From positions 1 to 32,372 of IMG/VR virus record IMGVR_UViG_2703718827_000001: DNA of 32,372 nt; one strand, 5' to 3'. Below the pieces are notes generated by a model. That model worked only from the letters and a program-made list of their open reading frames with translations. It was not told where the DNA came from and did no database searches. The stretch is from a virus. Lineage: Duplodnaviria; Heunggongvirae; Uroviricota; Caudoviricetes. Position 1 is the stretch's first letter; each line of letters opens with the position of its first letter. This document shows, piece after piece, positions 1 through 7,123 of the stretch. The position numbers and the translations under genes are program-made.

Positions 1-1154
1 GTGACGTAGTTGGTGACCAGTGATACCGGGTAAGTCGTGCCCTGCCAGCTGATGTTGAACGTCACAGGCGCGGTGCTAAAGTCGTAGGTGGTCGGCGCGG
101 CGCTGGCAGTTATGGTTGCGGCACTCCCACCCACCCCCGGCACTGCCGGAACGCCCGGGGCATAGCTGGCAATCACCAGATCGTAGTCATTGCCGTTATA
201 GTTCAGCGTCACCGGCATGCCTACATAAGGTGCAAGTTCCTCTATCCCGCCATAAATCATGCTGTAACCGCCGGACGACACGACCGTATACGAATTTGGG
301 GCCAGTACGGTGATCACCGTTCCGACGGTCCACGACGGCGGGATCTCCTCATCGCCAGACGACGATACGTCAACCAGCGTGATGGAGTTTCCAGACACGA
401 CCAGCGCATCAGCGATAATGCTGACCGTCTCCGGTCCGCTTGAGCCAAGGTCCAGCCCGGCAGTACCGGAACCGGTATTCCCGACCTCTGGTGAATTGAA
501 CCAGTTTTCAGTGCGCGTATCGCCGGATACCGTGGCGCCAGGCGGGTAGAGGGTGTAACGCACATCGGTACCGAACGCGGATATTGGCGTATTACCGATC
601 CTGATATCGGACTGGTTAATCACCATGTCGCCGACACCCACGCACAGGAACATGCTGGTTTCCATGCTGGTCTCGTTAACGAACCGGCTGACCGGCTGCA
701 CGACGTAATCAGGCCAGACGCGATATTTGCCGAAGATTTCCCGGATGGGGTCACCCAATTTCGCCGCGTTGGCTTTAGCCGGGTTGAGGTCAATCTGGTC
801 GCCGCTGGCCGCCTGGGCGCCACCGCCGCCAGCCTGAGACATTGTGCTCATCATGTAGATGCTGTACGCAGCAGAGGCTACGGCTACGCTGACGGCAACC
901 CAGATCGCGATTTCTGCACCGGTACCGTATGGCACCGGATACATCCTTACGTCTGTTTCTCGCTTGATAACGCACAGTGGCCACTCTGAAGCCGGGACGG
1001 GAACGCCATCGATTTCAACCGCGACCGGGTGCTGCTGATCCGGCGCCCAGCCCTTCACGTTCCGCGCAAACCAGGCGCTGAGCAACATCGTTTCATGTTC
1101 GTGCTTCTCCAGCGGTTCGCCCGGCAGGCGAGAGGGATAGATTCGGATCGTCAC
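1..1154 (-). CDS. Tail-tip protein (gpI/J-position), C-terminus truncated by the window edge
   Basis: Minus-strand frame is open from a GTG at 1152..1154 (overlapping the upstream stop as GTGA, with GGAG about 8 nt upstream) to position 1, translated by hand from the sequence; alternative ATG at 1086..1088. Contains a hydrophobic segment (AEIAIWVAVSVAVASAAYSIYMM) followed by a Gly-rich stretch. Position after the K-like gene. Not in the ORF track because it has no stop in the window. Confidence 0.45.
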   Translation of the reverse strand, partial: MTIRIYPSRLPGEPLEKHEHETMLLSAWFARNVKGWAPDQQHPVAVEIDGVPVPASEWPLCVIKRETDVRMYPVPYGTGAEIAIWVAVSVAVASAAYSIYMMSTMSQAGGGGAQAASGDQIDLNPAKANAAKLGDPIREIFGKYRVWPDYVVQPVSRFVNETSMETSMFLCVGVGDMVINQSDIRIGNTPISAFGTDVRYTLYPPGATVSGDTRTENWFNSPEVGNTGSGTAGLDLGSSGPETVSIIADALVVSGNSITLVDVSSSGDEEIPPSWTVGTVITVLAPNSYTVVSSGGYSMIYGGIEELAPYVGMPVTLNYNGNDYDLVIASYAPGVPAVPGVGGSAATITASAAPTTYDFSTAPVTFNISWQGTTYPVSLVTNYV

Positions 1155-1582
1155 TGGTAATACTCCACGCGGACAAAGCGGCGCGCAAACCGCGCCAGCG
1201 GCAGAAATGTTACGTTGGTGCGGGGATTGCACTCCGCTGCGCGCAGCTGGCCGTCAATCTCGACAACGATGGCAACGTGTGTCACCACAGAGCCGGAATA
1301 ACAGGCGATACCCGCACCTGGAGCCGGTTCACATCGCGTCAGACTAGCCATCAGCCCCCGCGCCTCCCGGTCAAGACCGTTATCGTCCTTCGTGACGCCG
1401 GCGAAATCAGGCCACGGCGCCAGACCAAGATCCCGCCTGATTTCATTGACGATGCCAAAGCAGTCCAGCGCGGGGTAAGCGCGTCCGCCCTTCTGCCACT
1501 CGACAGAACGGTATTTATCAGGGTTAAACCGACCGTCTTTGCAGGATGAATTCACTTTTGAGGCGCTGGATAAGCTCATCAT
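1151..1582 (-). CDS. NlpC/P60 (C40 peptidase-like) tail protein, lambda gpK-position
   Basis: 143 aa; candidate catalytic Cys in LDCFGIVNEI and His in VTHVAIVV, consistent with the NlpC/P60 fold; sits between minor tail and tail-tip genes. Confidence 0.6.
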   Translation of the reverse strand: MMSLSSASKVNSSCKDGRFNPDKYRSVEWQKGGRAYPALDCFGIVNEIRRDLGLAPWPDFAGVTKDDNGLDREARGLMASLTRCEPAPGAGIACYSGSVVTHVAIVVEIDGQLRAAECNPRTNVTFLPLARFARRFVRVEYYQ

Positions 1583-1706
1583 TTGACTCCTTAATCATCT
1601 TCTCTGCCTCTGATCTGGTGATGAGATCGGGCTGGTTGTGGCATTCATGGTGGATATCGAGAGGATGCGCTGACGCCAGCGGGTTGCCGGTATTGTATTT
1701 AGCCAT
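1524..1706 (-). CDS. Small hypothetical tail-module protein (60 aa)
   Basis: ORF overlaps the NlpC/P60 gene start by 59 nt in another frame; His/Cys-rich patch HPLDIHHECH. Could be a separate small gene or the N-terminal part of a split K-like protein. Confidence 0.3.
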   Translation of the reverse strand: MAKYNTGNPLASAHPLDIHHECHNQPDLITRSEAEKMIKESNDELIQRLKSEFILQRRSV

Positions 1707-1715
1707 AATGATTTC

Positions 1716-2216
1716 CTACTGGAGATAGCGGAGGCCCGGGAAGACTGGAAGCGTGTATCGATAGCGCGGCCATGCGGTTTTCAGGATATTCAGGAACCCC
1801 GCAGTGATCTGAACCTCTGTCGCGTTCCAGTACCCGTCTTTGATCTGCAGGACAATCGGAGGCGACGCGGGGGAGCTCAGGTCGGTCGATATGTACTGTC
1901 GCATTACCAGCGTGCCGTTGTTCAGGTTAGCCAGGGCGTTGCGTATTGCCGTGGAAACGATGCCGTCTATGTTGCTAACGGCGAATTGCAGATCCTGCGT
2001 GCCGTCCTTATTCCTTGCCGGTAGCGCGATAGCCATGGCCGCCGCCAGGAACGTCACTGTCTCCCCCGCCTCCGTAACAGCGGTGATGTCTTCGAAGTTC
2101 TCGACCAGGCAGTAACTCTGGCTTCCGACGTTAATCTGCAGCGTATTGAGGATGATTTCACTACCATCACTGGTGTAAAGCCTGTTTAAGATTGCGCTGG
2201 TCATGCCTCTGGCCAC
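1716..2216 (-). CDS. Minor tail protein (gpL-position)
   Basis: 166 aa ORF, overlaps the upstream gene by 16 nt (coupled); position between the tape-measure-proximal minor tail gene and the K-like gene. Confidence 0.5.
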   Translation of the reverse strand: MARGMTSAILNRLYTSDGSEIILNTLQINVGSQSYCLVENFEDITAVTEAGETVTFLAAAMAIALPARNKDGTQDLQFAVSNIDGIVSTAIRNALANLNNGTLVMRQYISTDLSSPASPPIVLQIKDGYWNATEVQITAGFLNILKTAWPRYRYTLPVFPGLRYLQ

Positions 2217-2671
2217 TCCTTGTTGAGCGCATAATCGATAATGCTCTGCCCCACGATGAACTCAGGGAAATTACCCCAGACAGGAGGCAGGATTGGACGC
2301 TCCCACAGCTCTAATATTGCCGTGAACTTCCAGAACCCAAGCGCGTACAGTACCGGGCCGTTGTAGATATCTTTGAACCGGCACACGTAATCACCAACAC
2401 CCATTGGCGTACGCATGCGCATGTTGAACCACGCTGCGCCGTCAGTAATCACATCCCTGAACCACACCTCAAACAGCTGCGCCTGGGCATCGTTAAACAC
2501 CCACGAAACAGACGCCTCAGTCGGAACCGAGGTGTATTTGCGGCGCTGCCGCGTGCGGCCAGATGTCATGGTGGTGCGCTGGAGCGGGCTTACCGGGGTG
2601 AATCCATGCCCAGAGCGTTGAGGCATTGGCAGGTACTGATGCGGGAAATCAATGGTGCTGCTGATCCCCAT
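2201..2671 (-). CDS. Minor tail protein (gpM-position)
   Basis: 156 aa ORF starting 9 nt after the tape measure stop; position-based call. Confidence 0.5.
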   Translation of the reverse strand: MGISSTIDFPHQYLPMPQRSGHGFTPVSPLQRTTMTSGRTRQRRKYTSVPTEASVSWVFNDAQAQLFEVWFRDVITDGAAWFNMRMRTPMGVGDYVCRFKDIYNGPVLYALGFWKFTAILELWERPILPPVWGNFPEFIVGQSIIDYALNKEWPEA

Positions 2672-2680
2672 GAGAGCTCC

Positions 2681-5092
2681 TTATGTGATTCGTTGACTGG
2701 TGTTGAAGTTGGTAGCGAGAGCGTTGGACAATTTGCCCTTACCGCTGGCGACATCTCTGACGGCCATGGCGTAGCCCTGCTGCGCACCTCGCTTAACCGC
2801 GGCCTCAAGCATGGCTTGTTGCTGTGCAGAGTAATCACCGTTTAGATGGATAACCGGGCTGAAATTGAACGCCCCGCCACCACCGCCGATATCCCGGTTA
2901 CTGATGACGCGACCGTTATCGCCGGGGATCATGTACTGGCTACCATTGCTGGCTTTGAAAATCTCAGGCTTGCCGCCCTCGCCCACACGGTACATGGAGC
3001 TGGCAGATACCGGGCCGCCGTTTTCGCGCCCGCCGCCATATGAGATGCTCGCAACGTTCGACAGCAATGACGCTCCAGCAGAGGCGATGGCTGCATAGTT
3101 CGCAAGTTTTTGCGCTGGAGTCAGCGCTGTCGGATCAGCCATGGCCTGCATGATTGCGGTATTCAGGCTGAGGGTAGACTGGGCAATCGCAAACGCTTTA
3201 CTGGCTGCGAACATGACCTGGTACGCCGCGTTACTCTTACCAGCAGAGTCTGCAATTATCGACGCCAGGCTATCAAAGCCCTGGGACGCAGAGCCCAGAA
3301 TAGAAAGAACGGATGCTCTTTGCTGATCTGCCTCAGTCTGCGCTATTTGCATCCGTGCGTTTGACGCCTGCAGTTGGATGGCAGTTTTGGCGTCTTCGTA
3401 AAGCTGGGTATTTTGCTTATCCAGTTCCTGATATTTAGCCAGGGCCTCAAGCTTTTGTGTTTCCTGGAGATTGATTTGCGCCAGCGGATCCACTGATGCC
3501 CCAGTGATAGGGTTGACCGAGGTATTTCCGGCGGCTATCTCCTGTTTGGCATACTTCCGCCCCTGCTCAGCCTCTTTGCGCTTCTGAATAGAGATTGCTG
3601 CCTTTTCGTTTGCCTCACCAAGAGCCCTCGCTTCCGCTAGTTGCTGCTGAGTCGCGGCGCTACCAAGAGACTGCTCCGCACGAAGACCCGCCTCTTGAAT
3701 ACGGCGCTTTTCAATCGACTCTGTGGTCAGGTCTGATTGAGCGCGGAGATTAGCCAGTTTCTGAGCAATGGATTCAGCCTGCGATGCGGAAGTTTTGCCC
3801 TCTTTGTTGCTCTCTTTCCGCGCCTCAGTAACCCGATAGGTTTCTGCATATTCATCCTGAAGAGATTTGATGCGTTTCTGATCGGTGATACCAGCGTCTG
3901 TTGCATCATATTGAGCCTGCAGCCTGGCTCTGGCTTCACCTTCAAGCTTGGCTAGCGCCAGGCGGCGCTCTGAGTTTTTTATCAGCTTCGATGTAGCCGC
4001 ATCGTCTCCGGTCGTTTTAATGTTTATTGGCTTTGTATTAGAGGCCTCTTGAGAGGCTTGGGTCACGGCAGAAATATCCCCAACGAGAGCTGCAGCTTTG
4101 TTGCTTAGCCCTGCAAGCGCCTTGCTTTGAGCCTCCCAACCATCCAGTCCCAGCCAAGACCATGTCCTCGCCCTTCGCTCAAACATCTCTGCTGTGCTAT
4201 TGAGATCGGAAATTTGAGCTGCTGCTGAAGCTGTTTTCCCAGTCAGCCTGTCTATGGCTGTGGTGATGGAGTCAATTACAGCCACCATGGTTCTGCTCGC
4301 GCCCGTAGTCTGGTTAATTGAGTCAACCATTGACAGAAACGAATTGGTAAGAGCAGCATTGGCCTGAGATAAGGTGCGGGGCAATTTTGCGAACTCTGCA
4401 TTCACGATGCTGGTTTGCTTCTGAATTGCATTGAGTGCATCTTGAGCAGAAAGCTTCCCATCCAGCATCAACTGACGCAATTCACCAATACCAATGCCAA
4501 GCCCTGCCGCCATCTGCCTTGCCAACTCAGGCATTTGCTCAAGAATAGAGTTAAATTCTTCTGCTCTGACAACACCGGATGAAATAGACTGCCCGAATTG
4601 GCGCAGCGCATTAGCCATTTCCTCGGCAGATGTTCCTCCAATTCGACCAATTTTTTGAAGGGTGTCGGTAAGCTGCAATATTTGGCCATTAGTGGCACCA
4701 GTGCTCCGCAACGCAGTGCTTAACGTTTCCCACAGCTTGGCTGTATCCTGGAGAGATCCTCCTGTTGTTGAGCTTATATTCATCAGACTTTGCATGGTCT
4801 GAGATGCGACAGAAGCACTACCAGTTAGCCTTTCAACTCGAGCGTTAAGTTGGCTCATATTGTCAGCGGCTACAAGAAATGCCTTCCCCCATTCAACGAC
4901 AATTGAAGCAGCGATCGCGCCAGCTACTCTGCTTATGCTGGTCTGAAGCTCATCAAACTTGCTGGCAGCTTTTGATACTCCGCCATTCATCTTCTCAAGC
5001 CGTTCGTTGACTTTTCGCTGGGCCTCAATAAGGTTGGCTACATCCATCTGTACTTGATAGACGATATTTCCTACCTGTTCCTCACTGGCCAT
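2681..5092 (-). CDS. Tail tape measure protein
   Basis: About 800 aa, Ala/Gln/Leu-rich helical composition typical of tape measure proteins, downstream of the major tail protein. ORF extends to 5107, but the first ATG directly abuts a terminator T-tract; the second ATG (MASEEQ..., 5090..5092) has a GGAG Shine-Dalgarno 5 nt upstream. Confidence 0.85.
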   Translation of the reverse strand: MASEEQVGNIVYQVQMDVANLIEAQRKVNERLEKMNGGVSKAASKFDELQTSISRVAGAIAASIVVEWGKAFLVAADNMSQLNARVERLTGSASVASQTMQSLMNISSTTGGSLQDTAKLWETLSTALRSTGATNGQILQLTDTLQKIGRIGGTSAEEMANALRQFGQSISSGVVRAEEFNSILEQMPELARQMAAGLGIGIGELRQLMLDGKLSAQDALNAIQKQTSIVNAEFAKLPRTLSQANAALTNSFLSMVDSINQTTGASRTMVAVIDSITTAIDRLTGKTASAAAQISDLNSTAEMFERRARTWSWLGLDGWEAQSKALAGLSNKAAALVGDISAVTQASQEASNTKPINIKTTGDDAATSKLIKNSERRLALAKLEGEARARLQAQYDATDAGITDQKRIKSLQDEYAETYRVTEARKESNKEGKTSASQAESIAQKLANLRAQSDLTTESIEKRRIQEAGLRAEQSLGSAATQQQLAEARALGEANEKAAISIQKRKEAEQGRKYAKQEIAAGNTSVNPITGASVDPLAQINLQETQKLEALAKYQELDKQNTQLYEDAKTAIQLQASNARMQIAQTEADQQRASVLSILGSASQGFDSLASIIADSAGKSNAAYQVMFAASKAFAIAQSTLSLNTAIMQAMADPTALTPAQKLANYAAIASAGASLLSNVASISYGGGRENGGPVSASSMYRVGEGGKPEIFKASNGSQYMIPGDNGRVISNRDIGGGGGAFNFSPVIHLNGDYSAQQQAMLEAAVKRGAQQGYAMAVRDVASGKGKLSNALATNFNTSQRIT

Positions 5093-5107
5093 ATTTTCTC
5101 CGGGCAT

Positions 5108-5146: not shown

Positions 5147-5533
5147 TCACTTGGTGCAGAACTTATAATCACGCCCACAGAGCGCTATGGATTTTTTTCC
5201 ATCCTCTGACCAGGCCTCTATGGACTGGACATAAACAGCATTCGTCTCTGCATCGATCTGGAACGAAACAAGCCCACCGCTGTAATCTAAAATCTTCCCA
5301 TTTCCCTTAATCGCCTTAAAGGTCGCCGACGCATTATAGGTGTTATCGCTTTTCCGCTCTGAAACCTTGGCCCTCCCCCCTTCAACAGAGAAACATCTTG
5401 CGCTCTTATCCCCACACAGAGCCATCGACATTTCTTTCTTCGCAAGCTGGAAGGCTTCATCTTCTGTGGGAGCTGGTTTACCACAACCAGCCAATAAGAG
5501 CCCTGCAATGGTGACGATTATTAAGCGTTTCAT
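5147..5533 (-). CDS. Lipoprotein (moron); candidate superinfection-exclusion lipoprotein
   Basis: 128 aa; N-terminal signal peptide with lipobox LLAGC; AAGGA Shine-Dalgarno 3-4 nt upstream; followed by its own terminator; region looks AT-richer than flanking tail genes. Confidence 0.7.
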   Translation of the reverse strand: MKRLIIVTIAGLLLAGCGKPAPTEDEAFQLAKKEMSMALCGDKSARCFSVEGGRAKVSERKSDNTYNASATFKAIKGNGKILDYSGGLVSFQIDAETNAVYVQSIEAWSEDGKKSIALCGRDYKFCTK

Positions 5534-5895
5534 ATCCTTATTCCCATTGGTAAAAGTGGAAACATCCTACCCAGGAATAGCACAGGCGCAACGGCAAACG
5601 CTGATTTATTGATCTCAATCGACCGGAAACGGGAAACCTGATCTTTTATCAGGATGTTCGACAATGGGGGTTCCAGGGTAGGTTATTTCATCTTCTCTGC
5701 GACCAAAGCAGTTAAGAAGTAAGCACTCGACATTCTTAGTGTTGATCCACAGGAAGAGGAAAATGAGCGACCAAAACCAAAAACAGAACACCAATCAACC
5801 TTCGCAGCAATCTACCACCCAACCGACGCCGGGGGACAAACCGAGAACCGACTTCTCGCTTGACCGCCGATTTGTTGGGAATTCTGCCGATAAAA

Positions 5896-6468
5896 TCAGA
5901 AAAAAAGATAGCCCACAGTAGTAATAGCTAACGCGCAAATCGGAGTGAGGATTGTTGCGATCCTCGCTCTGTCTAACCTGGTCCTGATTCGCTCATTCAC
6001 TTCACACAACTCTTCAGCTGTATTGTGCAAATTGGCTAACCTGATACGCCTGATTACTGATACCGGGTTGCGGTCAGCAGTAAACCCCCTACTTGCCAGT
6101 TCTTCGTAATGCTCATGGTCCAGCGATTTATAAAGTTTAGTATAGAGATCTGCCGGCGCTGAGTTAAGCAAAGCGCGAACCTGAACTGACAGGACGCCAG
6201 TAACCAAATAAATAGCGCACGCTGCCCAATAGAGCATGAACACACCAATACCTAGCGACATAAAAAAAGGTTGGTTATTTTGCGTCAGCAGTAAAAACGA
6301 TGAACCAATTCCGACAATAAGAATCCCAAGCAATTTGTATCCGTTTTCTCTGTTAATTGTATTCGATTGCTCGATCTCTTTGATGCACTCCTCGCCCTGT
6401 CTCTCGAGAAATTCAACAAGCTTATCATCGGCACTTAGAAAATAATCGTAAGGGAGATTTGTCATCAT
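5896..6468 (-). CDS. Multi-pass membrane protein (moron), unknown function
   Basis: 190 aa; two adjacent hydrophobic helices (LLGILIVGIGSSFLLLT and FFMSLGIGVFMLYWAACAIYLVTGV) and a C-terminal hydrophobic segment; weak RBS; AT-rich. Confidence 0.55.
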   Translation of the reverse strand: MMTNLPYDYFLSADDKLVEFLERQGEECIKEIEQSNTINRENGYKLLGILIVGIGSSFLLLTQNNQPFFMSLGIGVFMLYWAACAIYLVTGVLSVQVRALLNSAPADLYTKLYKSLDHEHYEELASRGFTADRNPVSVIRRIRLANLHNTAEELCEVNERIRTRLDRARIATILTPICALAITTVGYLFF

Positions 6469-6525
6469 AAACCGCTTAACTTTATGGACTTAGATAAATT
6501 TTAACCGATTGTGGGCTTGCGTATA

Positions 6526-6549
6526 AAGGAAAAGCCCACCTGAGTGGGC
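6526..6549 (-). terminator. Rho-independent terminator downstream of the KilA-N gene
   Basis: Minus-strand hairpin GCCCAC-TCAG-GTGGGC followed by TTTTCCTTTAT, about 10 nt after the KilA-N stop. Confidence 0.55.
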
Positions 6550-6559
6550 CTTGCCACCT

Positions 6560-7123
6560 TCACGCGATGCCTGGCAGGTACATCTGAACTTCATCGGCGA
6601 CGCGCTCCCTTGCTGCGTGCAACAGCTGCTTACGACCACCGACACCCCACCGGGCCATCTGGCTGGCGCATTGGCTGATCTGCCTGGTTTCAGTGTTGAT
6701 GATGTGGTCGATTTTGTTCAGGCGAGACATGGCACTGATACCGAGGCGCACTACGGTTCTGAACACCTCATACACTTCAATCTCAAATTCCGGCTTAATC
6801 CATGCAGCATAACGGATCGCCAACAGTTCAACACCCCAAACGCCTGGTTCATCCCCACCTTTAATAACATTAAGTGGTTGAATTTGTTCCAGAGTGCTTT
6901 TTTGCACTTTGGCTTTTAGTGCTTTTATGAAGCGCTTAACTTGAGCACTACGCAAAAACTGACTTGGGCGCTGCTGTTCTGTTGCCTCTCCGTTTGCCAC
7001 TGCGGCTGCATGAAGATCATTAAGGTTATAGCGCCCTTCGTCATCAACGCGAACGGAAACGCCGTTTACTGATACGGTTGGATATTTCATTGCGATTTGC
7101 CTATAGAAAGCAGAGCCTGTCAC
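6560..7123 (-). CDS. KilA-N domain protein (moron inside the tail operon)
   Basis: 187 aa; N-terminal region (VSVNGVSVRVDDEGRYNLNDLHAAA ... VIKGGDEPGVWGVELLAIRYAAWIKPEFE) matches the KilA-N/APSES-type DNA-binding domain pattern; possible alternative start at Met12. Confidence 0.7.
   Translation of the reverse strand: MTGSAFYRQIAMKYPTVSVNGVSVRVDDEGRYNLNDLHAAAVANGEATEQQRPSQFLRSAQVKRFIKALKAKVQKSTLEQIQPLNVIKGGDEPGVWGVELLAIRYAAWIKPEFEIEVYEVFRTVVRLGISAMSRLNKIDHIINTETRQISQCASQMARWGVGGRKQLLHAARERVADEVQMYLPGIA

Follow-up and report, generated by a model that had tools for sequence, protein, structure and literature searches.

What protein is encoded at the left edge of the window, the 32,372-nucleotide (nt) stretch of virus record IMGVR_UViG_2703718827_000001 analysed here, where a long minus-strand gene of the tail-tip cluster is cut off by the end of the sequence? 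The original prediction offered two answers, a fused I-J-type protein or the N-terminal part of the host-specificity protein, and both are true together because an I-type module and a J-type hub share one chain. Window positions 1 to 1154 very probably encode the N-terminal 384 residues of a siphophage TipJ or 'baseplate hub 2' protein of about 1,030 residues from an enterobacterial prophage, with a gpI-type plug module fused to a gpJ-type hub. This fused tail-tip hub arrangement is already known and annotated; PHROG and NCBIfam families, RefSeq annotation and a solved member structure exist, and the window provides one more example.

The gene (1..1154, minus strand; the 5′ part of an I-J fusion of the TipJ/baseplate hub 2 family) starts at a GTG codon at 1154..1152 and continues for 384 sense codons, stop-free to window position 3, while the other two minus-strand frames contain 16 and 17 stops over the same span. 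It had been described as open for more than 380 codons, as longer than a lambda gpI-type protein and as running off the window edge, and all three statements are accurate: lambda gpI has 223 amino acids (aa), and the full gene in relatives is 3084–3087 nt long and encodes 1027–1028 aa, the in-window fragment being the N-terminal 37% of the protein. In the sequence GTGA this start codon shares bases with the TGA that ends the 143-aa gene upstream, and GGAG is found 8 nt before the GTG. In the family alignment the homologues all have M(T)IR(I/V)YPS as their first residues, from this codon onwards, and the start assignment is therefore correct.

Window positions 1–2700 match eight complete E. coli chromosomes. 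The best match is strain GN25 (97.6%), whose orthologue is 1027 aa long, shares 96% aa identity and is annotated as 'host specificity factor TipJ family phage tail protein'; in the seven further complete genomes the match falls within a gene bearing the same TipJ-family name. Besides GN25, six further database contigs carry an intact hub gene. When the 1027-aa orthologue was scanned, NCBIfam NF040662 was found at residues 554–1016 (E = 7e-122, 407 bits against a cut-off of 140), Pfam FNIII-A_GpJ at residues 555–652 (E = 3.6e-14) and, below its cut-off, Pfam Phage-tail_3 (E = 0.011). The window fragment has no NF040662 match, as the modelled region (residues 554–1016) lies beyond the window, and it matches positions 2–348 of the 903 in phrog_469, 'tail protein' (E = 3e-86). 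The TipJ-annotated orthologue, NF040662, FNIII-A_GpJ and phrog_469 together support the reading of the frame as the N-terminal part of a protein of the host-specificity family.

This family comprises 605 clusters at 50% identity (E ≤ 1e-3). In the best 150 clusters nearly all full-length members (803–1368 aa) align from residues 1–5, in the query and in the matched protein alike, so these share the N-terminal module. A tblastn search of a phage collection found relatives in Klebsiella prophage-derived phages and in Pseudomonas D3, PAJU2 and phi297; megablast against the same collection gave no match. Structural matches in BFVD were long 'Tip attachment protein J' proteins. The position of the gene is likewise that of a hub, at the end of a tail-tip module that runs tape measure protein (TMP), distal tail protein (DTP), hub 1, K-like protein, hub 2 and then fibre.

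The first 160 or so residues can be divided into four parts, all on the minus strand. Residues 1–77 (924..1154) correspond to a ThiS/MoaD-like, ubiquitin-like β-grasp domain of the gpI/TAPI N-domain type that ends in P75-x-G77, with P75 present in 82 and G77 in 80 of the 101 family sequences. This is followed by a hydrophobic helix, AEIAIWVAVSVAVASAAYSIYMMS (residues 80–103, 846..917), the counterpart of the lambda gpI hydrophobic helices H1 and H2. The hydrophobic segment reads AEIAIWVAVSVAVASAAYSIYMM and has its best 19-residue Kyte–Doolittle mean, 1.85, at residues 82–100 (IAIWVAVSVAVASAAYSIY). Between the β-grasp and the conserved motif described below this mean reaches at least 1.0 in 92 of 100 full-length representatives, and at least 1.6 in 65. 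A flexible linker rich in Gly, Ala and Ser, TMSQAGGGGAQAASGD (residues 104–119, 798..845), assigned from its sequence and a predicted local distance difference test score (pLDDT) of 42–47, is variable across the family except for G118 and includes the Gly-rich stretch QAGGGGAQAASG at residues 107–118. The strongly hydrophobic stretch and Gly-rich segment noticed earlier are thus both real. The fourth part, ANAAKLGDPIREIFGKYRVWPDYVVQPVSRF (residues 120–160, 675..797), is a TAPI-C-like motif with the family consensus ANxxKLGxxIPExxGxxRxYPDYLxPPxRxF, in which N129 and G142 are invariant. An AlphaFold2 model built from an 81-sequence alignment, which replaced a first run on 20 close homologues (pLDDT 47), had an overall pLDDT of 79, with more than 92 in the N-terminal domain, and placed a helix at residues 80–101.

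The likeness to lambda gpI extends over the whole module. When the N-terminal alignment of 101 family sequences was compared with a gpI alignment by hhalign, residues 29–147 matched gpI 44–199 (E = 3e-4), collinearly across β-grasp, hydrophobic region and C-terminal motif, and a profile search recovered gpJ, as described below. The TAPI-C-like motif of the window protein aligns to DNMVAQGNVLPVLYGEMRVG in lambda gpI. Within it the strand motif is ANAAKLGDPIREIFG in the window protein (consensus ANxxKLGxxIPExxG) and DNMVAQGNVLPVLYG in gpI, so that N129, G134, I137-P/R138 and G142 fall on the N, G, LP and G of the latter. Homology of this part to gpI residues of about 175–205 has moderate, not strong, support. 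In both proteins, then, a β-grasp with a conserved Gly at its end comes first, a hydrophobic/Gly-rich segment second and a C-terminal strand motif last, and in both cases the gene directly follows K. They differ in that lambda gpI is a separate 223-aa chain with two hydrophobic helices, whereas the module in the window has one helix and is covalently joined to the hub; in addition, the upstream gpK of lambda has a JAB domain, while the K-like gene of the window consists of the NlpC/P60 half only.

The phrog_31 'central tail fiber J' profile bridges the two lambda proteins. Residues 40–195 of the window protein map to its positions 134–317, lambda gpI maps to 132–276, and lambda gpJ starts at 263. 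It follows that in the window protein a single chain holds both the I-like part and the beginning of J. A Pfam scan of 59 N-termini from the family detected ThiS in 18 (best E = 1.9e-7) and Lambda_tail_I in four (best E = 0.004). These results support the view that the first 160 or so residues are a gpI-type module fused to a J-type hub, and the β-grasp, the helix and linker, the motif collinear with gpI and the phrog_31 overlap together uphold the earlier suggestion of a fused I-J-type protein. The module is the I-like part of a fusion protein and not a gpI orthologue, as the chain is longer than 384 aa (about 1027).

Several observations weigh against this assignment. The window protein has no Pfam or NCBIfam match; ThiS and PF06805 Lambda_tail_I, the latter sought at E ≤ 1, were not found in it. 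The hhalign match to gpI has a probability of just 40%, and the gpI alignment is of low diversity. The fragment and lambda gpI show no significant match in pairwise BLASTP. The allele lineage closest to the window over residues 218–384 is truncated at 444 aa, and in the window the frame runs off the edge before its stop. Lastly, the plug and membrane-insertion roles set out below are drawn wholly by analogy, and for gpI itself insertion is a hypothesis in the lambda papers. Other simple comparisons were equally unrevealing: the orthologue and gpJ gave an insignificant or weak match in pairwise BLASTP, hhalign told nothing when a first, shallow alignment was set against gpI and gpJ as single sequences, and phmmer, run with the full orthologue on PDB sequences, returned noise only, a profile search being required.

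With the family profile, PDB entry 9OCC chain E, the 'putative tail protein' gp14 of Shigella siphophage Sf11, was found with E = 2.3e-55. The match includes the N-terminal module (profile 7–205 with residues 6–193, E = 8e-19) and the hub (E = 5e-34). Sf11 gp14 is the 'baseplate hub 2 protein', present in three copies per virion and modelled over residues 81–827; in structure it is, according to its authors, the equivalent of the baseplate hub 2 protein of phage Chi (PMC12724387). It is too divergent from the window protein for tblastn, and at 828 aa it is shorter than the window family (about 1027 aa) because the latter has a larger insertion between the N-terminal module and FNIII-A.

Lambda gpJ (PDB 8IYK chain J) was next in the profile search (E = 1.7e-8). 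Its hub is homologous, gpJ residues 121–589 matching phrog_469 positions 429–885 (E = 1e-30), and the FNIII-A_GpJ and Phage-tail_3-type regions that the two proteins share lie outside the window in the orthologue. Relative to gpJ the window family adds the N-terminal I-module and an insertion of about 320 aa. It lacks the central fibre and the LamB-type receptor-binding domain: Ig_J, Phage_Tail_Tip and Ig_GpJ_C were absent from the full-length orthologue and were found in gpJ by the same scan.

In 2006 Iyer, Burroughs and Aravind reported TAPI-TAPJ fusions beside JAB-less NlpC/P60 K genes; they also gave the TAPI pattern as a β-grasp with a conserved C-terminal Gly followed by a linker (PMC1779556). 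These prophage genes have a ubiquitin-like TAPI on TAPJ, a JAB-less NlpC/P60 neighbour and a small β-rich protein in the operon, and no difference from the window was found. A functional analogy can be drawn with T5 pb3, in which a lumen-closing plug with a proposed outer-membrane contact lies within the hub chain (summarised in PMC10721106). The pb3 plug, however, is inserted within HDII-ins instead of forming a gpI-type module at the N-terminus, and HDI is present in pb3 as well. Lambda gpL and gpI, together with the N-terminal part of gpJ, have been equated with the single-chain T5 hub pb3, with its internal plug (PMC10721106, PMC11101478). The window is thus one more instance of a known plasticity, in which siphophage hub functions (gpL/gpI/gpJ as against single-chain pb3) are split variously among polypeptides.

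Downstream of the module, residues 161–230 (465..674, minus strand; pLDDT 86–95) form a conserved segment whose counterparts are the start of gpJ-type proteins, where IRIGNTPIS aligns to LLNSTPVL of lambda gpJ, and residues of about 150–193 of Sf11 gp14. Residues 231–384 (1..464, minus strand) are the start of a β-rich variable insertion, residues 231 to about 550 of the full protein, which precedes the FNIII-A and hub domains. Here β-strands are predicted with a pLDDT of 63–92; no fold could be assigned, since structure searches with the whole model were dominated by the β-grasp. In the alignment of homologues this insertion contains indels and acidic linkers. Klebsiella homologues, for example, have an acidic low-complexity insertion (e.g. 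DDDDDEDEDDN) at residues of about 262–270 (alignment columns of about 275–290) that is absent from the window protein.

The part of the protein beyond the window consists of hub domains (FNIII-A and the NF040662 region) and is not a lambda-type receptor-binding fibre; the orthologue ends about 10 residues past the NF040662 model. The expectation that the receptor-binding end lies outside the window is accordingly unsupported, because separate, interchangeable fibre or tailspike genes come after the hub gene and the orthologue ends in hub domains without the gpJ fibre and receptor-binding domains. Prophages with an identical K-like gene (loci L007–L010) differ in the gene that follows the hub: it encodes a Peptidase_S74 fibre (780 aa), a Tail_spike_N protein (500 aa) or a SASA and Peptidase_S74 protein (590 aa), which indicates modular exchange of receptor-binding proteins. 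In GN25 a tail-fibre gene follows the hub gene, a GT2 glycosyltransferase gene is nearby and the prophage end adjoins yciB/yciC/ompW.

Could host range nevertheless be determined partly within the window, by contact of the variable β-rich insertion (residues 231 to about 550) with the cell surface as a receptor-binding region? The gene is mosaic at this point. Compared with the GN25 prophage, window positions 501–2700 show 100% identity, the 65 differences all being confined to positions 1–500 (residues of about 218–384), which gives a sharp boundary at about residue 218 with 100% identity upstream and 12% nt divergence downstream; over window positions 1–520 complete E. coli genomes match at no more than 89.7%. 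The most variable, recombining part of the protein (residues of about 218–550) lies partly within the window. This boundary, the indels and acidic linkers of the homologues and the want of lambda-type fibre and receptor-binding domains at the C-terminus of the orthologue are all consistent with a receptor-binding role, and cell-wall-facing N-terminal additions to gpJ-like hubs have been proposed as antireceptors in phage Jersey (PMC13243795). On the other hand, residues 231–384 have no fold assignment, the swappable fibre and tailspike genes after the hub are more obvious determinants, and the divergence may merely reflect recombination with the downstream fibre module. A receptor-binding role for the insertion is therefore regarded as possible but doubtful. 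For inferring host range the downstream fibre or spike gene should be consulted, and perhaps the variable region at residues 218–550.

The origin of the divergent segment bears on whether the gene is intact in the window's genome. Over residues 218–384 there is one aa mismatch to the database protein P0001 (444 aa) and to loci L003–L006, and window nt 1–555 (gene nt 600–1154) differ at three positions from these loci. In all four a single nucleotide is missing (TTACCCGTT to TTACCGTT) at gene nt of about 1291 (codon of about 431), 137 nt past the window edge. In this lineage (L003:6001-9080; also L004–L006) the frame ends at 444 aa, and a GTG-started hub open reading frame (ORF) of 582 aa overlaps the new stop.

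The gene in the window might likewise be split or decayed, its frame ending about 60 codons past the edge to give a 444-aa I-like protein carrying the insertion and a separate 582-aa hub ORF, which would be either a defective hub or a functional one made of two chains. In favour of this, the nearest allele (three differences over window nt 1–555) has both the deletion and the overlapping 582-aa ORF, and hub proteins are divided differently among phages (PMC13243795, PMC10721106). However, the four deletion loci are identical over 3080 nt and therefore represent one lineage and one deletion event. All seven complete genes in loci sharing the window's K-like gene are intact (1027–1028 aa), and the hub gene is intact by annotation under all eight complete E. 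coli genome matches. Exact-pattern scans of genome and metagenome contigs for the left flank of the window gave no match, and among the relatives found via P0001 and the K-like protein no locus was identical to the window across the mosaic junction. As the window is mosaic, its continuation past the left edge cannot be inferred from relatives. On balance a split gene is unlikely, and the identity of the in-window part as the N-terminus of an I-J hub is unaffected by the intactness of the left flank. Several other family entries (P0003, P0005) also end in out-of-frame tails.

The role of the module can be considered by homology to lambda gpI and gpJ, T5 pb3 and Sf11 gp14. Lambda gpI is a virion protein that plugs the lumen of the tip as a tripod of three copies, below the coiled coil at the C-terminus of the TMP, its strands threading between gpJ hub domains; its hydrophobic helices are proposed, as a hypothesis only, to reach the outer membrane once receptor binding opens the hub, and its N-domain is unresolved in the structure (PMC10721106, PMC11101478). 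By analogy, three copies of the window's hub protein would form a conical tip beneath the DTP ring. The I-like segment would fold back into the lumen, its strands augmenting the β-sheets of the hub domains, and the linker and helix region would plug the channel under the TMP coiled coil. Residues of about 80–160 would be expected in this plug and threading role. On contact of the fibre or tip with the cell surface the hub domains would swing open and the plug would be released, delivering the hydrophobic helix (residues 80–103) to the outer membrane, where it may insert and start the conduit for TMP and DNA. The β-grasp is probably an assembly domain, which may be flexible, absent or removed in the mature tip.

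Removal of the β-grasp could occur by cleavage at P75-x-G77 while the tail is being assembled, with the neighbouring NlpC/P60 peptidase as one candidate, so that the mature hub would start at the helix. The conserved PxG at the domain end matches the conserved C-terminal Gly of TAPI, whose cleavage by gpK peptidase domains has been proposed (PMC1779556). The Sf11 gp14 model begins at residue 81, and in lambda gpI the N-domain was not resolved (PMC12724387, PMC11101478), and the overlap of the hub start with the stop of the K-like peptidase gene suggests translational coupling. Flexibility would explain the unresolved density equally well, however; the K-like protein has no JAB domain, and no biochemical evidence was found for cleavage of any I-type protein. 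Cleavage, which would modify rather than replace the fused I-J hub as the best explanation, is thus improbable. Slightly less credence still is given to its fullest form, in which the β-grasp is a ubiquitin-like 'pro-domain' cut at P75-x-G77 by the JAB-less NlpC/P60 peptidase, the mature hub starts with a membrane-active helix and, in a related proposal, the 444 + 582 aa split is a functional two-chain hub. If true, tail assembly would include a ubiquitin-like processing step that is encoded by the phage and depends on a papain fold.

The least tenable alternative, that separate I-like and J-like genes were joined by a sequencing or assembly error, can draw on the frequency of frameshifted or truncated gene versions in databases (P0001, and the out-of-frame tails of P0003 and P0005) but is effectively refuted: these frameshifts break the gene farther downstream and do not create a fusion, the I/J junction (about residue 160) falls where the family alignment is best conserved and free of gaps, the single-chain architecture recurs in hundreds of 50%-identity clusters, and the solved Sf11 gp14, a virion protein of 92 kDa, was modelled as a single chain from residue 81 to 827 (PMC12724387). 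A membrane-anchored, non-structural protein was also considered and rejected, as the hydrophobic helix sits in a virion hub family with a solved member.

The genes transcribed ahead of the hub complete the tail-tip module. In order of transcription they encode the TMP, the 156-aa DTP-like protein, the DUF1833 protein, a 60-aa ORF and the K-like protein, collinear with lambda H-M-L-K-I-J minus a separate I. All are on the minus strand. The K-like gene (1151..1582; 142–143 aa), whose stop overlaps the hub start, encodes only the NlpC/P60-CHAP-type peptidase half. It has a weak match to Pfam CHAP (E = 5e-4, below cut-off) and matches phrog_329, which is also matched by residues 68–178 of lambda gpK, the NlpC/P60 half; Pfam and PHROG scans found no JAB/MPN domain in it. 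The earlier description of this gene as K-like therefore stands for the NlpC/P60 half, on the CHAP and phrog_329 matches. The 60-aa ORF (1524–1706) overlaps the start of the K-like gene by 59 nt, has no family match and is hypothetical in RefSeq relatives.

The DUF1833 minor tail protein (1716..2216; 162–166 aa; Pfam DUF1833, E = 2.9e-34, and phrog_396) occupies the baseplate hub 1 or gpL position, corresponding to that of Sf11 gp16 (PMC12724387). Neither this protein nor the K-like protein has a PDB sequence match. The protein in the DTP position (2201..2671; 156 aa) matches phrog_384 and, weakly, the N-terminus of the Sf11 DTP, gp17 (E = 0.063); the Sf11 DTP has 457 aa and bears tailspikes. 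The TMP (2681..5107; 808 aa) was identified by Pfam TMP_3 (E = 1.4e-54).

Many GenBank phage and genome records name homologues of the hub protein 'kinase', and many name the K-like NlpC/P60 protein 'nitrite transporter'; both appear to be propagated misannotations. The appropriate label for the frame in the window is 5′ part of a TipJ/baseplate hub 2 gene with an N-terminal gpI-like plug module, not 'kinase'.

Between the tail chaperone region and the TMP gene are three minus-strand genes that do not look like tail genes (5147–7123). They encode a KilA-N protein (6560–7123), a 190-aa ORF with hydrophobic stretches (5896–6468) and, beyond a non-coding gap of about 360 nt (5534–5895), a 128-aa ORF starting MKRLIIVTIAGLLLAGC that is lipoprotein-like, with a lipobox (5147–5533). 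This set looks like a moron-type insertion.

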